Shown piece after piece: positions 4,869 to 34,427 of a stretch of DNA of 34,427 nucleotides; position 1 is the first letter of the stretch; each line of letters starts with the position of its first letter. The position numbers and the translations under genes were made by a program. A model generated the notes under the pieces. It was not told the origin of the DNA. It did no database searches and was given only the letters and a program-made list of their open reading frames with translations. Source of the DNA: a virus; the UHGV virus genome UHGV-0118447. The stretch is one strand, 5' to 3'.

Positions 4869-5763
4869 TGGCAACCTCCAGTTTCGCTTTGCATTCTATG
4901 TAAATGGCTTGTACGTTCTGCTGCAATTTCATTCCAGACGTCAGGCGATATGCTTCTGCAAAATATCGCTTCAAATCATCCATGTTTTCTGCCTGAGCCA
5001 TTTCATCGCAAAGAAGTTGTACTTTATCCATTATTTCCTGCTGGCGTTTCCGTTCATCTTCGCGGATATCTTCCTCTGATTTGTGCGGCATAACTGGTTC
5101 AGTCCACACACCTTCTTCTTCGTTTAGTACGTGAATAGCACTATCAAGACGTGATGCCTTAGGCCAATACTTGCTTGCACGCTTTACGACCGTCTTTCGC
5201 GCCATCTCATTCCAGTGATTTACCCATGGTCCTTTATCGCTGAATGCCGCCTTGCTTGTTTTCCTTACAGCCTCAATTTCAGCCAGACTCATCTCTTCCG
5301 TTAGATAATCACCTGCTGGCGTCTTAACTGTGCAGTAAACGCCAACGATATCACCACGATCACCGAAGGCGTTGTATTTATGGGTTGGTGCTTTATCAAG
5401 CCCGTTTGACTCATAGGTATCGTTAGCATGAACAAGTTTTGCCTGACCCCATGAGATAACACCAGACTCCATTGCAATATGGAGCAATCCCATATAACTG
5501 ATATCAAGGCACACCATGCCGTCGCGCGGAACCAGATAAGCCAGTTTGCTGGCCGGGTTTAAGGTGATACCGATCGCCGCAACATTGATGATGGCGTTCT
5601 GTGCGCTGGTTGGATTTGCCAGTGCTGTTTTAGCCAGGTAATCATTTTTCTGGAAATACTGAATTGCAAACTGGCTTTCCTTAGCCCATGTCACCGTCTG
5701 TTCAGTCAATGCTCCGCAGAATAACTGCTCTTGCTGTTTAACGAATTCAACGATATTGCTCAT
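4852..5763 (-). CDS. recT: RecT-family single-strand annealing recombinase
   Basis: 303 aa; GPWVNHWNEMARKTVVKRASKYWP region matches the conserved RecT core. Confidence 0.85.
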   Translation of the reverse strand: MSNIVEFVKQQEQLFCGALTEQTVTWAKESQFAIQYFQKNDYLAKTALANPTSAQNAIINVAAIGITLNPASKLAYLVPRDGMVCLDISYMGLLHIAMESGVISWGQAKLVHANDTYESNGLDKAPTHKYNAFGDRGDIVGVYCTVKTPAGDYLTEEMSLAEIEAVRKTSKAAFSDKGPWVNHWNEMARKTVVKRASKYWPKASRLDSAIHVLNEEEGVWTEPVMPHKSEEDIREDERKRQQEIMDKVQLLCDEMAQAENMDDLKRYFAEAYRLTSGMKLQQNVQAIYIECKAKLEVASEQTV

Positions 5764-6071
5764 GCTGCTTCTCCAAAAATGTGTCTGCGTTTGAATATTG
5801 CGAAGGCATATTCAGCCTTAACTCTTTCGGTTATTGCATCCCAGAACCATTCAGCGGCTTTTTCCTGATAGTCACAGTCATCATCTTCCAGCCAGTCGAT
5901 AGCGTCCTTAGTGTGTTCATCTGGTTTATATGAGCGAAGCATTTCGCTTATTGGGTCGCAACGTTTGCAGAGGCGATCAACTTCACTGTTGATTCGTTCG
6001 TAATCTTCATCAGTAAAACTTGCGATTATTTGCGATATTTCACGCTTATCATTCAGAGTCAGAATCATCAT
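5760..6071 (-). CDS. Acidic hypothetical protein (103 aa) coupled to recT
   Basis: ATGA stop/start overlap with recT; strongly acidic; occupies the position held by gam/abc anti-nuclease genes in related phages. Confidence 0.55.
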   Translation of the reverse strand: MMILTLNDKREISQIIASFTDEDYERINSEVDRLCKRCDPISEMLRSYKPDEHTKDAIDWLEDDDCDYQEKAAEWFWDAITERVKAEYAFAIFKRRHIFGEAA

Positions 6072-6156
6072 CTTTCTCCTGTTCTTTGTGCTGATTGAGC
6101 ATTTTGTTCATCTGACGAATGAATTCTTCGTCTGACCATGTATCCGCAATACTCAT
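6049..6156 (-). CDS. Small acidic ORF (35 aa), uncertain
   Basis: ATG-initiated ORF whose start overlaps the upstream stop (ATGA); very short and overlaps the next gene by 23 nt. Confidence 0.25.
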   Translation of the reverse strand: MSIADTWSDEEFIRQMNKMLNQHKEQEKDDDSDSE

Positions 6157-6317
6157 TGCTTAACGACCTTAATCAGTTGAGTTACCTCAATGATGTCCTC
6201 GCATAAATCCGAGTACTGAAATGGGCCGCAGTTGTGAGAGTTAGTGCGTCTGGCGAAAGCCATTCTTCTAAGCTCTTTCATGGCTTCTTCCAGTTCCTCG
6301 TAAGTTGGTTTTTTCAT
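6153..6317 (-). CDS. Small hypothetical protein (54 aa) at the kil position
   Basis: ATG overlaps the cIII-like stop (ATGA); lies between cIII and the recombination genes. Confidence 0.4.
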   Translation of the reverse strand: MKKPTYEELEEAMKELRRMAFARRTNSHNCGPFQYSDLCEDIIEVTQLIKVVKQ

Positions 6318-6484
6318 GGCTGTACCTTTTGATTCAGAAACTCAACAAGACGATCCAGCAAGCTCTTAACGCGAGGTTGTTTAAAGTCTGCTCCGGTTAA
6401 AATATTTTTTCGTGAATGCTGTACCGATAAAATCGGGTTGAAAGGGCGAACCGATGCCGCCCCTGCAATAGCGAACTGTTGCAT
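6314..6484 (-). CDS. cIII: CIII-like protein (56 aa)
   Basis: MQQFAIAG...SLLDRLVEFLNQ resembles lambda CIII (MQYAIAG...RLIDILNQ); AAGGAG SD; the longer ORF-track N-terminus overlaps a terminator and is rejected. Confidence 0.55.
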   Translation of the reverse strand: MQQFAIAGAASVRPFNPILSVQHSRKNILTGADFKQPRVKSLLDRLVEFLNQKVQP

Positions 6485-6548
6485 AGGATGCTCCTTCTGT
6501 TTGATTGCATAACGAAAACGCCTCAAGTGAAGCGTTATTGGTATGCAT

Positions 6549-10065: not shown

Positions 10066-10965
10066 ATGACAAATACAGCAAAAATACTCAACTTCGGCAG
10101 AGGTAACTTTGCCGGACAGGAGCGTAATGTGGCAGATCTCGATGATGGTTACGCCAGACTATCAAATATGCTGCTTGAGGCTTATTCGGGCGCAGATCTG
10201 ACCAAGCGACAGTTTAAAGTGCTGCTTGCCATTCTGCGTAAAACCTATGGGTGGAATAAACCAATGGACAGAATCACCGATTCTCAACTTAGCGAGATTA
10301 CAAAGTTACCCGTCAAACGGTGCAATGAAGCCAAGTTAGAACTCGTCAGAATGAATATTATCAAGCAGCAAGGCGGCATGTTTGGACCAAATAAAAACAT
10401 CTCAGAATGGTGCATCCCTCAAAACGAGGGAAAATCCCCTAAAACGAGGGATAAAACATCCCTCAAATTGGGGGATTGCTATCCCTCAAAACAGGGGGAC
10501 ACAAAAGACACTATTACAAAAGAAAAAAGAAAAGATTATTCGTCAGAGAATTCTGGCGAATCCTCTGACCAGCCAGAAAACGACCTTTCTGTGGTGAAAC
10601 CGGATGCTGCAATTCAGAGCGGCAGCAAGTGGGGGACAGCAGAAGACCTGACCGCCGCAGAGTGGATGTTTGACATGGTGAAGACTATCGCACCATCAGC
10701 CAGAAAACCGAATTTTGCTGGGTGGGCTAACGATATCCGCCTGATGCGTGAACGTGACGGACGTAACCACCGCGACATGTGCGTGCTGTTCCGCTGGGCA
10801 TGCCAGGACAACTTCTGGTCCGGTAACGTGCTGAGCCCGGCCAAACTCCGTGACAAGTGGACCCAGCTCGAAATCAACCGTAACAAGCAACAGGCAGTCG
10901 TGACAGCCAGCAAACCAAAACTCGACCTGACAAACACAGACTGGATTTACGGGGTGGATCTATGA
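10066..10965 (+). CDS. O: Replication initiator O (lambda-type)
   Basis: 299 aa; N- and C-terminal sequences match lambda O from memory; contains the ori iterons. Confidence 0.95.
   Translation: MTNTAKILNFGRGNFAGQERNVADLDDGYARLSNMLLEAYSGADLTKRQFKVLLAILRKTYGWNKPMDRITDSQLSEITKLPVKRCNEAKLELVRMNIIKQQGGMFGPNKNISEWCIPQNEGKSPKTRDKTSLKLGDCYPSKQGDTKDTITKEKRKDYSSENSGESSDQPENDLSVVKPDAAIQSGSKWGTAEDLTAAEWMFDMVKTIAPSARKPNFAGWANDIRLMRERDGRNHRDMCVLFRWACQDNFWSGNVLSPAKLRDKWTQLEINRNKQQAVVTASKPKLDLTNTDWIYGVDL
10414..10499 (+). repeat. ori-lambda iterons (four repeats of about 18 bp, ATCCCTCAAAACGAGGGA-like) followed by an AT-rich region
   Basis: Four tandem iterons at about 10414, 10434, 10458 and 10481; AT-rich tract to about 10560. 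Confidence 0.85.
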
Positions 10966-29585: not shown

Positions 29586-29773
29586 CCTTCAACAGCCTGC
29601 CGGGCGGTGAAGACTTTATTCTTCGTCCGGCGATTGCCTTCCATATTGACCAGAAAGACCTTAACAGCGGTGCGGTAGACCTTTGCCGCATCGCGCTTCT
29701 CAATGACTACCTCGACATGCGCGAGGATAACGACGCCCGGGTAGATAAATGGAGAGCGGCCAATGAGCGGTAA
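29160..29773 (+). CDS. Tail assembly chaperone -1 frameshift product (GT-like)
   Basis: Heptamer A_AAT_TTT at 29531-29537 in the zero frame; the -1 frame is open from there to TAA at 29771-29773, overlapping the tape measure start. Confidence 0.5.
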
Positions 29774-32030
29774 CGCAGATACGATTAAAGACTTCCTTGT
29801 TTCGCTGGGATTCGATATCGATCAGGCTGGCGCTAATAAGTTTGAAGCCGTGCTGAAAGGCGTTACCGCAAACGTTCTGAAGGTCGGCGCGGTGGTGGAA
29901 GGCGCAGCGCTGAGCATTGTCGGATTTACCACCCAGATCGCGAATGGTCTGGATAAAATTTACTGGGCATCCCAACGGACGGGGGCCAGCGTCCAGGGCA
30001 TCAAAGCGCTGGGCTATGCCGCGTCGCAAACCGGTGCCAGCGCCGAGTCGGCCATGTCCTCCCTCGAAGGGCTGGCCGGTTTCATGCGTAGCAATCCGGG
30101 GGCGGAAGGCTTCCTGAACCGTCTGGGTGTCCAGACCCGTGATGCCAGCGGAAAGATGCGTGATGCTGCGGCCATCTTTACTGGCGTTGGGCAAAAGCTC
30201 AACAACATGCCGTATTACCGCGCGAAGCAATACGCGCAGATGCTCGGCATCGATGAAAACACGCTGATGGCGATGCGGCGCGGCATGAATGGCTTTACCG
30301 CCGATTACCAGTCTATGCTGCAAAAGACGGGGTTCAACGCTGATAAGGCAGCCGTTCAGTCCAACAAATTCATGACGTCCATGCGCGGGCTTACGTCGCT
30401 GTTCGGCATTATGCGGGACAAGATCGGCTCAAACCTCGCTGGTGGTCTTGCTGGTTCGCTGGACAGCCTGCGGCGGCGCATCCTCGACAACTTCCCGAAG
30501 ATTGAAGAGACGCTGACCAGAGTTATTAAAGGCGTGATCTGGCTTGCGAACGCCTTCACGCGAATGGCGTGGCGGCTCATACAGGGCGCTGGCTCTGTCA
30601 TTGACTGGTGGAAGCGTCTTGACGATGGCAGTAAAAATCTGCTGAAAATATTCGGTGCTCTACTTGTCGCATGGCGTCTGCTTAATTCTGCGTTCCTGAA
30701 ATCCCCGATTGGAATTATCACCACGCTGATTCTGGCGATCGGATTACTCTATGACGATTATCAGACGTGGAAAGAAGGCGGTAAAAGCCTGATTGACTGG
30801 TCCAAGTGGGAGCCTGCAATAGAAAAGGCGAAAAAGGCAATTCTCTGGCTGCGCGATAAGCTTCTGGGGCTGAAAGATTCTGTTGGTGGATGGCAGAACT
30901 CGCTGGAAATTTTGGCTACTTTCATCGCTGGGGTATGGGTAACAAAAGTATTGGGAGCATTCGCAAAAATATCCGGTCTTCCGATACCTCCATGGCTTAA
31001 ATTATGGGGAGCGTATGCTGGTTACCTGGTTTCAGATCGTGAAAACATAAAAGCCAGTGCTAAATCATCTTTGGACTATACCAAAAGGAACATTGGTGAT
31101 GCTCTTGCTACGGTTGGCATCAAAACCGACCTTGGGCGAAAAGATGTTAGCGAGGTAAGAGAATGGCCCGCATGGATGGATTGGCTGCATGGTGGCCCAG
31201 GTAAGATTATTCGTCAGGCGCAAAGCAATGGCGTCGTTTATGGCGATAATGTTCAGCCTGACATTCCCGGGGCGGAACAGCATGTTCGTAGTAATGAAAT
31301 TGCCCCGCATGAAAGAGATGAAATAAAAAACCGTCAGCAGGCTGCTAATGGTTATCTTGAAAAGATCTCAGACGGGATTGCCAAAATCGGTAATTTACTT
31401 TTCTCACCTGCTGGTGCTGCTGAAATCTCTCCAAATATATCGGGTGACCCCTCCCAGTTTGCGCAATCAGTCAAACGTCCACAGGCCACAGCCCAGGGCA
31501 AAGTATTGCTCGACTGGATGGGGCCAATGTTCAATAAACTGGAGTCTCTTTATCAGCTGCCTGCTGGCTTGTTGAAAAGCGTGGCGATCACCGAGTCGGG
31601 TGGTAACCAGTTCGCTGTGTCCGGCGCAGGCGCGAAAGGACTGTTTCAGTTTATGGATGGCACGGCGCGCGACATGGGCCTGCGTGGGAATGATGTATTC
31701 GACCCGGAAAAGTCAGCTCAGGCAGCCGCTAAGTACCTTAGCCAGCTATTGCGGCAGAACGGCGGAGACCTTAGTAAAGCACTGGCATCATATAACTGGG
31801 GGATCGGGAATGTTAAGCGTTATGGAATGGGGCTAATGCCGCAGGAAACGCGCAACTACATTCCGAAAGTAATGAGCAACATGCCCACCAGCGCCCCGGT
31901 GATTCAGCAGGAAACGAACATTAACATCCACGGCGTTTCCGATCCTCGCGAAGCTGCCCGTTTGACTGTTGACCGTCAAAAGGGTGTGAATTCACAGTTA
32001 ACCCAGCAACTCCCCGCAGGACCGAGATAA
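29763..32030 (+). CDS. Tail tape measure protein with lytic transglycosylase (SLT) domain
   Basis: 755 aa; hydrophobic central segments; C-terminal region has an SLT-like motif (ESGGNQFAVSGAGAKGLFQFM...AAKYL). Confidence 0.8.
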   Translation: MSGNADTIKDFLVSLGFDIDQAGANKFEAVLKGVTANVLKVGAVVEGAALSIVGFTTQIANGLDKIYWASQRTGASVQGIKALGYAASQTGASAESAMSSLEGLAGFMRSNPGAEGFLNRLGVQTRDASGKMRDAAAIFTGVGQKLNNMPYYRAKQYAQMLGIDENTLMAMRRGMNGFTADYQSMLQKTGFNADKAAVQSNKFMTSMRGLTSLFGIMRDKIGSNLAGGLAGSLDSLRRRILDNFPKIEETLTRVIKGVIWLANAFTRMAWRLIQGAGSVIDWWKRLDDGSKNLLKIFGALLVAWRLLNSAFLKSPIGIITTLILAIGLLYDDYQTWKEGGKSLIDWSKWEPAIEKAKKAILWLRDKLLGLKDSVGGWQNSLEILATFIAGVWVTKVLGAFAKISGLPIPPWLKLWGAYAGYLVSDRENIKASAKSSLDYTKRNIGDALATVGIKTDLGRKDVSEVREWPAWMDWLHGGPGKIIRQAQSNGVVYGDNVQPDIPGAEQHVRSNEIAPHERDEIKNRQQAANGYLEKISDGIAKIGNLLFSPAGAAEISPNISGDPSQFAQSVKRPQATAQGKVLLDWMGPMFNKLESLYQLPAGLLKSVAITESGGNQFAVSGAGAKGLFQFMDGTARDMGLRGNDVFDPEKSAQAAAKYLSQLLRQNGGDLSKALASYNWGIGNVKRYGMGLMPQETRNYIPKVMSNMPTSAPVIQQETNINIHGVSDPREAARLTVDRQKGVNSQLTQQLPAGPR

Positions 32031-32656
32031 TGGATATTTTATCAGCGATTTTTCGCCAGCAATCACGGCGAATTGGCCTGCTGATCCCCAGCGTGGTCGT
32101 CTCCGAAAAGCATTCTGATGCGCTCGAAATTACTGAGCACCCGGTGGAGAAGCCAACAACGAATAGCGCTTCGGGCTTCATCGCCGATCATGCGTATAAG
32201 CGCCCCAGCGAAGTCACAATGGAATGCGGCTTCGCTGGTGGCGGTTCGTTGCTGGACTTCATTGATACATCTTCAATCGGTCTTAGCGCTGGGCTTAGCC
32301 CAAAGGAGACATACCAAAAGCTGCTGGATATGCAGCTTGAGCGCGTACCGTTCGATGTGGTTACCGGGAAGAGGGTGTACACCAATATGCTGGTGCGCGC
32401 CATCGAGGTGACAACGGACAAAACCAGCGAGAACGTGCTGAACTGCACGCTTACCCTGCGTGAAGTGATCATGTCGCAGACATTTAAAAAGCAGGTCGCA
32501 GATAAGTCGGATATGCAGGACGGGGTTAGTACATCTGCGGTGCAGAATTCCGGGACTAAATCCACCACCCCAGTAAATGAATCGGTAATTAAGTCAACAG
32601 GGTGGTTTGATGGACTAAAAGGAACCAGTCTTGGTAACTCTATAGGTATCCAATGA
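32030..32656 (+). CDS. Putative distal tail/baseplate protein (208 aa)
   Basis: TAATG-coupled to the tape measure gene. Confidence 0.5.
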   Translation: MDILSAIFRQQSRRIGLLIPSVVVSEKHSDALEITEHPVEKPTTNSASGFIADHAYKRPSEVTMECGFAGGGSLLDFIDTSSIGLSAGLSPKETYQKLLDMQLERVPFDVVTGKRVYTNMLVRAIEVTTDKTSENVLNCTLTLREVIMSQTFKKQVADKSDMQDGVSTSAVQNSGTKSTTPVNESVIKSTGWFDGLKGTSLGNSIGIQ

Positions 32657-32958
32657 ATGTAACTGAAATCCCTTTATCGCCGGATAACCAGCTATTTCGC
32701 ATTCAGTTAGCAGAGACAACATACACGCTGAGAGTCATTTGGCGTGATTCTGCTGGCTGGATTCTGGATGTACAAGATAGCAGTGGCGAACCGCTTCTTT
32801 CTGGCGTGCCGCTGGTAACCGGTGTAAATCTTCTTGAGCAATATCCTCAACTAGGTATTAACGGGGCGCTGCTCGTTGGCTGCGATGTAGGCGCACCGGA
32901 CGAGCCCACCAAAACCAACCTCGGCACATACAGCCACCTCATTTTCGTGCAGGAGTAG
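32653..32958 (+). CDS. Hypothetical tail protein (101 aa)
   Basis: ATGA-coupled. Confidence 0.45.
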   Translation: MNVTEIPLSPDNQLFRIQLAETTYTLRVIWRDSAGWILDVQDSSGEPLLSGVPLVTGVNLLEQYPQLGINGALLVGCDVGAPDEPTKTNLGTYSHLIFVQE

Positions 32959-32960
32959 AA

Positions 32961-34025
32961 ATGTCTCTTAACTGGATGCGCCATTTTGAGCTGCAACTGT
33001 TGGACCAGAACGGGCAGGGCGTTTCCCTGTCTGATTTTAAGGTCACGTTCCAGATCGAGTGGGCAGATACACGCTGGCCGCGAGTGGCGAACGTGAAAAT
33101 TTACAACCTTTCGACCGATACCACGAACAAGATACTGGGGCAGGAGTTTGCAAAAATTCGCATCATTGCCGGGTATGACGGTATTGCGCCGGATGTTGAT
33201 GCGAGCCAGGTTGGTGTCGCCCGGGAGATTTCACCAGACCAGGTAGGGCAGGTGAACGGTCAGAACTACGGCCTGATATTTGACGGTGATATTCGCTTCA
33301 CCGTCACCGGGAAGGACAACATCACCGATTCCTGGGTGCTGATTCAGGCCATCAGTAACCACGAAGCGTTCCTCTACGCGACTACCATCACCACGCTTGC
33401 CGCTGGTTATACCGTTGCGGACCTGCACCGGGCGACGATGCAGGATTTCAACGCGTTCGGCGTGACGCAGGGCATTACCGGTGACTTTCCTGATACCGTG
33501 TTTCCTCGTGGCCGTGCGATTTATTCATCCACCCGTAACGTGATGGATAATATTGCTGCGCAGTGCAAAGCGACATGGCAACTGGTAGATGGTCAGGTCC
33601 AGATGGTGCCGGAGGATAAATATATTCACGAAGCCATTGTGTTGAATGCTGATACTGGCCTGATCGGTATGCCGCAACAGACTATGGGCGGCGGCGTAAA
33701 CGTGCGGTGCCTGATAAACCCCAACATTCGCATTAATGGTCTTATCCAGCTCGATCAGGCTTCGGTGTACCGCGCCGCGCTCGGTAATAGCGAAATCGCA
33801 CAGTCGCCCGGGCGTATCACCGAAACTGAAGAGAACGGCAACCGTGTGCTGACCGGCACGACGTCACAGGCTGCCAGCATTGCGACGGATGGCGTTTATA
33901 TCGTCAAAGCTATCGACTATACTGGCGACACCAGAGGTCAGGCGTGGTACATGGATTTGATGTGCTTTGCGCGTGGCAGTCGTGAATTATATAGTCAGTC
34001 GACGCTCCAAAAAGTACAGGTGTGA
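32961..34025 (+). CDS. Putative tail hub/baseplate protein (354 aa)
   Basis: AGGAG SD; position after the tape measure and small tail proteins. Confidence 0.5.
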   Translation: MSLNWMRHFELQLLDQNGQGVSLSDFKVTFQIEWADTRWPRVANVKIYNLSTDTTNKILGQEFAKIRIIAGYDGIAPDVDASQVGVAREISPDQVGQVNGQNYGLIFDGDIRFTVTGKDNITDSWVLIQAISNHEAFLYATTITTLAAGYTVADLHRATMQDFNAFGVTQGITGDFPDTVFPRGRAIYSSTRNVMDNIAAQCKATWQLVDGQVQMVPEDKYIHEAIVLNADTGLIGMPQQTMGGGVNVRCLINPNIRINGLIQLDQASVYRAALGNSEIAQSPGRITETEENGNRVLTGTTSQAASIATDGVYIVKAIDYTGDTRGQAWYMDLMCFARGSRELYSQSTLQKVQV

Positions 34026-34026
34026 T

Positions 34027-34377
34027 ATGACAAAAATTAGGAATGTTATCTGCGGAGCCGTTCTTTCGTTGGTCGGAGCTTCAACTGCAATGGCTGATAC
34101 CCAATGCGGGCCATATCGCCTCACCGCAGGTAATGATGGTTTTATGCATATTAATGGTGTAAAGCCAGAAAACCAGAAAATGACCTTTCTGAAAGCCAAG
34201 GAAGATTATCAAAATCTCAAGATGGAATGGACGGTTGCAACTAATCAACCCGGCCGCTGGGTTGGTCTTGAGTACATCAAGCGCAACGGCAAAGCCATTC
34301 TCAACGCTCAGTGGCTGCAAGCCAGCATGGATTCGCCGCGTCAGTATGCAACATACGACTGCCGAAAAGTAAAATAG
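34027..34377 (+). CDS. Secreted small protein with signal peptide (moron-like)
   Basis: MTKIRNVICGAVLSLVGASTAMA-D signal peptide with AxA cleavage site; lower GC than the flanking tail genes; GC hairpin right after the stop (about 34378-34400). Confidence 0.55.
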   Translation: MTKIRNVICGAVLSLVGASTAMADTQCGPYRLTAGNDGFMHINGVKPENQKMTFLKAKEDYQNLKMEWTVATNQPGRWVGLEYIKRNGKAILNAQWLQASMDSPRQYATYDCRKVK

Positions 34378-34427
34378 CCCGCCAGATAGGCGGGCATGCG
34401 TCAAAAATATTGAGCTTTAATTATAAT

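Follow-up and report, generated by a model that had tools for sequence, protein, structure and literature searches.

The right-hand end of the virus genome UHGV-0118447 raises the question of whether the small protein encoded directly behind the baseplate hub gene is a part of the tail or a passenger among the tail genes and, in the latter case, what such a passenger would do. The window analysed is the whole 34,427-nt stretch of this genome, and the open reading frame (ORF) in question, near its end, encodes a protein of 116 amino acids (aa). A first-pass annotation, made from the letters of the sequence, had read it as an independently acquired moron closing the tail gene block and not as a virion component. 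Comparison with related phages and prophages indicates, with high confidence, that the 116-aa protein is an exported, non-structural accessory protein. It is regarded as an envelope-directed product and not as a tail part because it and its relatives carry export signals, because some relatives are lipoproteins and an unrelated lipoprotein can take its place, because most phages with the same type of hub lack it, and because the gene has an atypical composition and alleles that are shuffled between phages. The ORF and its two segments are as follows:

34027..34377, + strand: ORF of the 116-aa protein including its stop codon (ATG at 34027, TAG at 34375-34377), corresponding to phrog_3443 and to the PGAP 'STY1065/STY2022 family phage-derived protein'
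34027..34095, + strand: signal-peptide coding segment, residues 1-23 (MTKIRNVICGAVLSLVGASTAMA), with a predicted signal peptidase I cut after A23
34096..34374, + strand: mature coding segment (93 aa, 10.8 kDa, pI 9.4); the model is a beta-barrel of eight up-and-down strands, the first and last of which contain C27 and C112

The ORF, already singled out by the first-pass annotation, is a real gene well beyond chance when judged from its match to phrog_3443, a family of 'unknown function' (E = 4.4e-46 over residues 8-116), from its 79 homologous clusters at 90% identity, nearly all from Enterobacterales, and from the ratio of non-synonymous to synonymous change (pN/pS) discussed below. An alternative TTG start at 33967, giving 136 aa, was rejected since it overlaps the hub gene and since homologue alignments begin at the ATG. 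The N-terminus, MTKIRNVICGAVLSLVGASTAMA followed by DTQCG after the predicted cut, displays the basic residues K3 and R5, a 12-residue hydrophobic core and an A-x-A motif at -3/-1 that precedes D. The signal-peptide call was made by a heuristic that asks for a Kyte-Doolittle maximum of at least 2.0 over 9 aa together with small residues at -3 and -1; all 65 aligned homologues likewise have a hydrophobic core and then small -3/-1 residues ahead of a conserved Cys, which agrees with the classical Sec signal peptide cleaved after AMA that had been described at first reading. The two Cys then noted in the mature part were also found, these being exactly two, C27 and C112, whose columns are invariant in the 65 homologues. 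In some relatives (P0081 and P0097 among them) the same domain is preceded by a lipobox signal, LLSGC or VLSGC, and two alleles bear the automatic UniProt name 'Secreted protein'. The 116-aa protein is predicted to be a Sec-exported precursor cleaved by signal peptidase I, with a soluble product that would reside in the periplasm. Finally, the gene is poorer in GC than the adjacent tail genes, as the same annotation had remarked, with 46.7% (47.9% at third codon positions, GC3) versus 53.7% (GC3 63.1%) for the hub and 50.7-53.7% for the tape-measure protein (TMP), Dit-like, plug and hub genes taken together; only 2.2% of the 351-nt windows of the late region have a lower GC content.

An AlphaFold2 (AF2) model based on the 65-sequence alignment has a mean pLDDT of 84, reaching 85-95 in the mature part, and displays eight strands in an up-and-down arrangement. 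Because the invariant Cys fall in the first strand (25-27) and in the last one (107-114) of this model, a C27-C112 disulfide that would close the barrel is likely. The best structural matches are avidin/streptavidin-type 8-stranded barrels, at 5-11% identity and with Foldseek E values of at least 0.2, while a profile search against the sequences of the PDB returned just weak avidin and nanobody matches. The likeness to avidin is limited to the fold: the 93 mature residues represent about three quarters of the length of an avidin chain, and no membership of the avidin family was found at the sequence level. As modelled, the barrel fold is generic and assigns no function.

When a profile search was run against 1.8 billion proteins, only 60 representatives at 50% identity were retrieved, and the family is therefore narrow; large multi-domain matches in the same search (List_Bact repeats, MucBP, WD40) were regarded as spurious, being repeat proteins. 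Members occur in prophages of E. coli, Salmonella (including Typhi), Citrobacter, Enterobacter, Klebsiella and Serratia. In E. coli AF20 the orthologue that lies directly after the hub (WP_042043841.1) is named 'STY1065/STY2022 family phage-derived protein' by PGAP, a link that rests on gene position and on the DNA match, a scan of the allele of the window with NCBIfam having given nothing. The gene is, in database terms, an ordinary hypothetical secreted prophage protein, already catalogued without an assigned function.

The evidence that sets the protein apart from the tail comes from its neighbourhood in other phages. A set of 80 viral contigs was compared (designated by L numbers below) whose hub is 84-100% identical to that of the window, and 78 of these reach beyond the hub. 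A homologue of the 116-aa protein directly follows the hub in 75 of the 78 loci and, in nine of these 75, the domain forms the last third of a fusion protein of 296 aa that bears a lipoprotein-type signal (LLSGC). These fusions were observed at ca. 5069-5959 of L016, L017, L020, L029, L038, L043, L044, L050 and L052, the signal being mutated to LLSGG in L016, and their N-terminal domain of about 200 aa matched no Pfam or PHROG family. In the three other loci (L051, L055 and L061, at ca. 5070-5795), the slot is filled instead by an unrelated 241-aa lipoprotein (lipobox LTSC), itself without a Pfam or PHROG family match, in phages of which the hub is 96% identical and, for L051, the spike 100% identical. 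Among 120 phage records with a homologous hub, 20 carry the 116-aa protein and all 20 are enterobacterial.

The region between the 116-aa gene and the spike varies from nothing (L082, L084) to 2.1 kb (L033), and the content of the hub-spike gap as a whole spans 55 nt to 2.1 kb. Besides the DUF4236 gene described below, this cargo comprises two different signal-peptide proteins (found in 7 and 6 loci, respectively), a protein anchored by its N-terminus (5 loci) and a polytopic membrane protein. Sequence motifs further point to a Phd/YefM-like and Doc/Fic-like pair in L021 and L060 (ca. 5480-6320), to a HEPN-like protein of 123 aa encoded behind one of 258 aa in L063 and L065 (ca. 5424-6547), and to RHH and Bro/ANT-like genes in L033 (5413-7472). 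PHROG and Pfam scans of the other cargo returned 'unknown function' only. More distant phages have the same gap filled differently: it holds other signal-peptide proteins in Burkholderia phage Magia and Elizabethkingia phage EKP1, and three small genes in Hafnia phage yong1, two of which were inspected closely and have no N-terminal export signal. A different signal-peptide protein, of 227 aa, was also detected between plug and hub in L086, so that exported proteins are found near the hub at more than one junction.

Judged from its gene content, the hub-spike junction is an accessory-gene hotspot, bordered by the hub stop codon and by the terminator that precedes the spike, and the 116-aa gene appears as its commonest first cargo in SEN34-like temperate lambdoid myoviruses of Enterobacterales. 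Hotspots for accessory and defence genes occur in other temperate phages, P2 and P4 being examples. The hub-spike junction resembles these in being a fixed junction between conserved genes with cargo that varies among near-identical phages, but differs from them in lying inside a baseplate operon and in collecting mostly exported or membrane proteins. A limited search of the literature found no description of it.

The history of the alleles also departs from that of the structural genes. Citrobacter phage Omnitron is 90% identical to the window in DNA sequence up to position 33989, with a hub that is 96.9% identical and a copy of the 116-aa protein that is 59% identical. Over 52 loci, the mean difference between mature proteins is 0.25; the hub reaches 0.05, the spike N-terminus and gp25 0.02-0.03, and the SLT region of the tape measure 0.07. 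Distances between alleles show no correlation with the SLT, Dit, plug and spike distances (Spearman coefficient below 0.1) and a modest one (0.31) with the distances of the adjacent hub; another modest co-variation, with the N-terminal part of the TMP, relates to few pairs. Synonymous differences (pS) amount to 0.70 for the 116-aa gene, 2.5 times the 0.28 of the hub. Based on 76 alleles, pN/pS is 0.27 overall, with 0.72 for the signal-peptide segment against 0.10-0.34 for the mature one, where residues 71-116 have a value of 0.10, a profile that is the pattern one would expect of a functional exported protein. On these figures, the alleles are best described as old lineages under purifying selection that have been moved by recombination between young structural backbones.

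With regard to the genes that precede it, the 116-aa gene occupies a tightly packed part of the late region:

29763-32030, + strand: tape-measure protein (755 aa) with a C-terminal lytic transglycosylase (SLT) domain at residues 589-689
32030-32656: Dit-like baseplate protein
32653-32958: plug of the Pam3-gp18 type
32961..34025, + strand: baseplate hub of 354 aa, Mu gp44 / E217 gp41-like, with its stop codon TGA at 34023-34025; left border of the hotspot
34018..34022, + strand: Shine-Dalgarno-like AGGTG, read from the sequence, inside the end of the hub gene and 4 nt ahead of the ATG

A single nucleotide separates the hub stop codon from the ATG and, given this gap and the AGGTG located within the hub gene, the hub and the 116-aa gene are most simply taken to be translationally coupled; tight coupling or overlap with the hub was seen in every relative examined. 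The window ends 50 nt past the ORF. Placing the gene last in the tail block, as the first-pass annotation did, was wrong, since the window merely stops there, and in relatives the order is hub, 116-aa gene, variable small genes, gpV-type spike, gp25-like sheath initiator, baseplate J, DUF2612 wedge and fibres (as compared in L005, a 97% identical E. coli prophage, in SEN34, Mulock, ST11-OXA48phi15.1 and vB_EcoM-683R1). On this gene order, the 116-aa gene sits in the middle of the baseplate module. The prophage is otherwise lambdoid, with an integrase, an S24 repressor (CI), a replication protein O, a Q antiterminator, a holin, a GH24 lysozyme and Rz, and its relatives SEN34 and Mulock have been described as temperate (PMC5261728, PMC6856289). 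Two further features of these relatives were observed. Mulock, vB_EcoM-683R1 and contig L086 have a tape measure without the SLT domain, which is therefore itself a variable module in this phage group. In the record of vB_EcoM-683R1 (L002 4928-5992), the hub is annotated as two coding sequences (CDS), 4928-5566 and 5573-5992, yet tblastn aligns 352 residues to the hub of the window, and the split probably reflects a frameshift or a sequencing error.

Morons are defined as extra DNA of different GC content that has its own promoter and terminator and is expressed from the repressed prophage (PMC3594210). Sequence comparison suggests that the 116-aa gene answers to this definition partly, namely as extra DNA, when the 20 carriers among the 120 hub-type phage records are considered, though 75 of the 78 loci in the close enterobacterial clade have it, and as DNA of deviant GC content (46.7% versus 50.7-53.7%, among the lowest 2.2% of late-region windows). 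A promoter just upstream finds no intergenic space, as only 1 nt precedes the ATG, and the lone match lies inside the hub gene:

33895..33923, + strand: candidate promoter, a weak sigma-70-like match TTTATA-17-TATACT (9/12) located in the hub ORF and ending 104 nt upstream of the ATG

In the 15.6-kb late region the + strand has no other match of this kind, but a single occurrence is not above chance when 1.6 are expected by shuffling; the match was seen in close relatives and in L001, and not in L002-L004, L086 and L087. What the sequence argues for is late co-expression with the tail genes. As for a terminator, a + strand hairpin with a T-run is found at most 15 nt before the spike ATG in L005 (10980-10999) and also in L082 (ca. 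5430-5447) and L084, and is conserved across differing cargo. In L082 and L084 it directly follows the 116-aa gene with nothing else in between, and in L033 and L045 a + strand terminator likewise occurs immediately after this gene. A terminator of its own is seen for the 116-aa gene only in arrangements without intervening cargo. We infer, by analogy with lambda Q, that late transcription reads through such terminators by Q antitermination. Overall, the comparative evidence sustains an accessory, exported and non-virion protein, as the first-pass annotation had proposed, while the particulars of that reading find no support: the gene has no convincing promoter of its own, it is coupled to the hub, and its presence at the slot is nearly constant.

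The GC-rich hairpin reported after the gene is indeed present at 34377-34395 but belongs to a convergent gene, the end of which enters the window:

34377..34395, - strand: hairpin with the stem arms GCCCGCC and GGCGGGC around a tatct loop, followed by TATTTTACTT on the minus strand; DUF4236 terminator, overlapping the last base of the stop codon of the 116-aa ORF
34401..34427, - strand: last 9 codons, stop included, of the DUF4236 gene, cut by the end of the window and found whole in L005 at 10502-10792

The stem has 7 bp, all of them GC (-18.1 kcal/mol, z = -4.7), and the T-run, TATTTTACTT, lies on the minus strand. The hairpin was found in the 23 loci out of 23 that have DUF4236, beside alleles of the 116-aa protein that are 62-100% identical to that of the window, and in none of the loci without DUF4236. 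It is interpreted as the intrinsic terminator of the DUF4236 gene because of the minus-strand T-run and because its occurrence tracks DUF4236 whatever the allele of the 116-aa gene, and it was rejected as a terminator of the latter on the same grounds. The DUF4236 protein has 96 aa with a C-terminal membrane anchor; its gene was counted in 18 loci by ORF clustering and in 22 of the 80 contigs by tblastn. With AT-rich DNA upstream and a terminator of its own, this gene has an architecture that is closer to that of a classic moron than the 116-aa gene.

The function that appears most likely for the 116-aa protein, though it is put forward tentatively, is that of a periplasmic protector of the superinfection-exclusion type, and this is because of the analogy with HK97 gp15, T4 Spackle, T5 Llp and phi80 Cor, all of them likewise encoded beside the entry apparatus on whose route they act. 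The protein would be produced along with the hub from a late transcript extended by Q antitermination, expression in the lysogen from the weak promoter inside the hub gene being also possible. After Sec export and cleavage by signal peptidase I, it would yield a soluble periplasmic beta-barrel of ca. 10.8 kDa closed by a disulfide, and this barrel would hinder incoming related phages, once adsorbed, at the tail tip or during the delivery of their DNA.

The closest of these systems in terms of gene position is HK97 gp15, a superinfection-exclusion moron found inside a tail operon (PMC3594210). It is similarly a small envelope-targeted protein of deviant GC content encoded between essential tail genes in a temperate lambdoid phage, and it acts on the tail or DNA-delivery step of the incoming phage. 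However, gp15 resides in the inner membrane, and its gene, located between those of the tail chaperone and of the tape measure, has a promoter and a terminator of its own, whereas the 116-aa protein is predicted to be soluble and periplasmic, is encoded by a gene coupled to the hub that has no convincing promoter, and shares no sequence similarity with gp15. T4 Spackle (gp61.3), a small protein with a disulfide, inhibits the gp5 tail lysozyme in the periplasm (PMC7677548). It has a cleaved export signal, as predicted for the 116-aa protein, and the two have in common a small mature part (75 versus 93 aa) and a single pair of Cys; the action on a superinfecting tail tip in the periplasm that has been shown for Spackle is the one proposed here. 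Spackle is, however, a helical bundle encoded by an early gene of a virulent phage, in contrast to a modelled beta-barrel encoded in the late operon of a temperate one. Finally, T5 Llp and phi80/N15 Cor are lipoproteins that block FhuA (PMC9586334, PMC11436027); they are exported exclusion proteins with genes adjacent to those of the entry apparatus, the route of which they close. Some relatives of the 116-aa protein are, as mentioned, lipoprotein fusions; the allele of the window differs from Llp and Cor by its signal peptidase I site, by the absence of a lipobox and by the lack of sequence similarity.

Several observations weigh against an exclusion function. Co-variation of the 116-aa protein was looked for with TMP, Dit, plug, hub, the N- and C-terminal parts of the spike, gp25 and J, and no partner emerged that could represent a target. 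Searches with Pfam (E <= 0.1), NCBIfam release 20 and PADLOC (E <= 1) gave no match, and a literature search found no paper that treats STY1065 or STY2022 as genes. No promoter of the 116-aa gene stands above chance, leaving late lytic expression as the only expression for which the sequence offers an argument. One member of the family, P0111, which is 26% identical, is chromosomal (L090 5001-5339, GCA_026549045.1) and has tsx, a LysR regulator, ubiD and yoaK as neighbours, phage genes being absent for 5 kb around it; membership of the family is therefore not confined to phages. Other distant members keep to the baseplate module, one of 32% identity being located between hub and spike in L086 and one of 26% identity between plug and hub in contigs of marine metagenomes (L088/L089 367-709). 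Such a near-constancy at the slot, down to 32% identity, is unusual for a sporadically acquired moron, and a linkage to the baseplate module that is kept to 26-32% identity could equally mean that the protein has a role in the cycle of the phage itself.

Such a role, which we consider unlikely although it ranks first among the alternatives, would be that of an envelope protein made late and exported during the lytic cycle, which either protects the cell or the progeny (from lysis from without or late superinfection, or by preventing the loss of progeny on debris, the role proposed for T5 Llp) or tunes the timing of lysis. Apart from the distant linkage just described, it would account for the ATG placed 1 nt after the hub stop with its Shine-Dalgarno sequence inside the hub and the same coupling in all relatives, for the near-universal presence in the enterobacterial clade and for the absence of a promoter above chance. 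Against it stands the fact that an unrelated lipoprotein can replace the protein and that most hub-type phages do without the gene, from which it follows that the protein is not needed for the cycle. Alleles are moreover shuffled independently of the structural genes, and the lysis cassette (holin, GH24 lysozyme, Rz) is located 17 kb away and looks complete.

Less probable still is a benefit to the host by lysogenic conversion, in which a periplasmic binding barrel would sequester a small ligand or alter the envelope so as to confer resistance to stress, serum or antimicrobials, in the manner of the lambda Bor class. Many barrels of the avidin/calycin-like type bind ligands, the family is widespread in enterobacterial prophages and has a stand-alone chromosomal homologue, and the pN/pS of 0.10 in the C-terminal half would fit a conserved host target. 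Bor is a lipoprotein and Lom an outer-membrane barrel of ca. 200 aa that belongs to the Ail/OmpX family; both resemble the 116-aa protein in being envelope proteins encoded by prophage accessory genes in or beside the late genes. The likeness to the lom, bor and cor families that the first-pass annotation had drawn nevertheless does not hold at the level of the protein, which has no Pfam match at E <= 0.1, no lipobox (there is no Cys at +1) and a mature part of 93 aa predicted to be soluble. Against a host-benefit factor speak the lack of sequence kinship with Bor, with Lom and with Pfam families in general, a mature barrel about three quarters as long as the avidin chains that it matches, and a strict linkage to the baseplate module that such a reading leaves unexplained.

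An inhibitor of peptidoglycan hydrolases of the Spackle or PliC/MliC type, acting in the periplasm against the tape-measure SLT of incoming phages, is improbable. Small beta-barrels are a common inhibitor fold, exemplified by MliC and PliC, and the tape measure of the window does possess an SLT domain; neither a family-profile match nor a close structural match to MliC, PliC or Ivy was found for the 116-aa protein. Spackle offers a precedent as a small protein of the periplasm with a disulfide (PMC7677548), but its fold is not that of the all-beta model and the presence of the 116-aa protein does not track a tail SLT or lysozyme domain. Inhibition of a tail SLT was rejected as a general explanation since three carrier phages have no detectable tape-measure SLT and since alleles do not co-vary with the SLT region.

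Lastly, it is very improbable that the protein is a virion or baseplate-assembly component with a hydrophobic N-terminus that is not a cleaved export signal, as the fixed position in the baseplate operon, the coupling to the hub and the position kept in distant relatives might suggest, given that the -3/-1 motif is conserved while the N-terminal region evolves near neutrality as in signal peptides, that lipobox variants exist, that an unrelated lipoprotein replaces the protein beside a 96% identical hub and a 100% identical spike, that 100 of the 120 phage records with this hub lack it and that its divergence is fivefold that of its structural neighbours. The SEN34 paper contains no virion proteomics, and a literature search on the virion composition of Mulock, GZ7, YP3, Omnitron, Wanchaivirus and Brunovirus yielded none.

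Superinfection exclusion is thus retained as the preferred, if tentative, function of an accessory protein that is itself assigned with high confidence. A bolder extension of it, to which we give distinctly less credit, is that the hub-spike junction is a hotspot dedicated to exported and membrane proteins, in which the barrels of the STY1065 family represent an unrecognised class of soluble periplasmic exclusion proteins that catch the complex of the tail tip, be it at the spike, the hub or the ejected tape measure, on its way across the periplasm, with reshuffled ancient alleles setting which related phages are excluded. Should the exclusion reading be true, a new fold and a new family of periplasmic entry blockers would be present in many enterobacterial prophages, which would bear on the host range of phages used in therapy and on the competition between prophages. 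The more solid by-product is a map of a hotspot within a baseplate operon that collects exported, membrane, toxin-antitoxin-like and HEPN-like cargo, and this junction between hub and spike is a useful place in which to seek new phage defence or exclusion genes.

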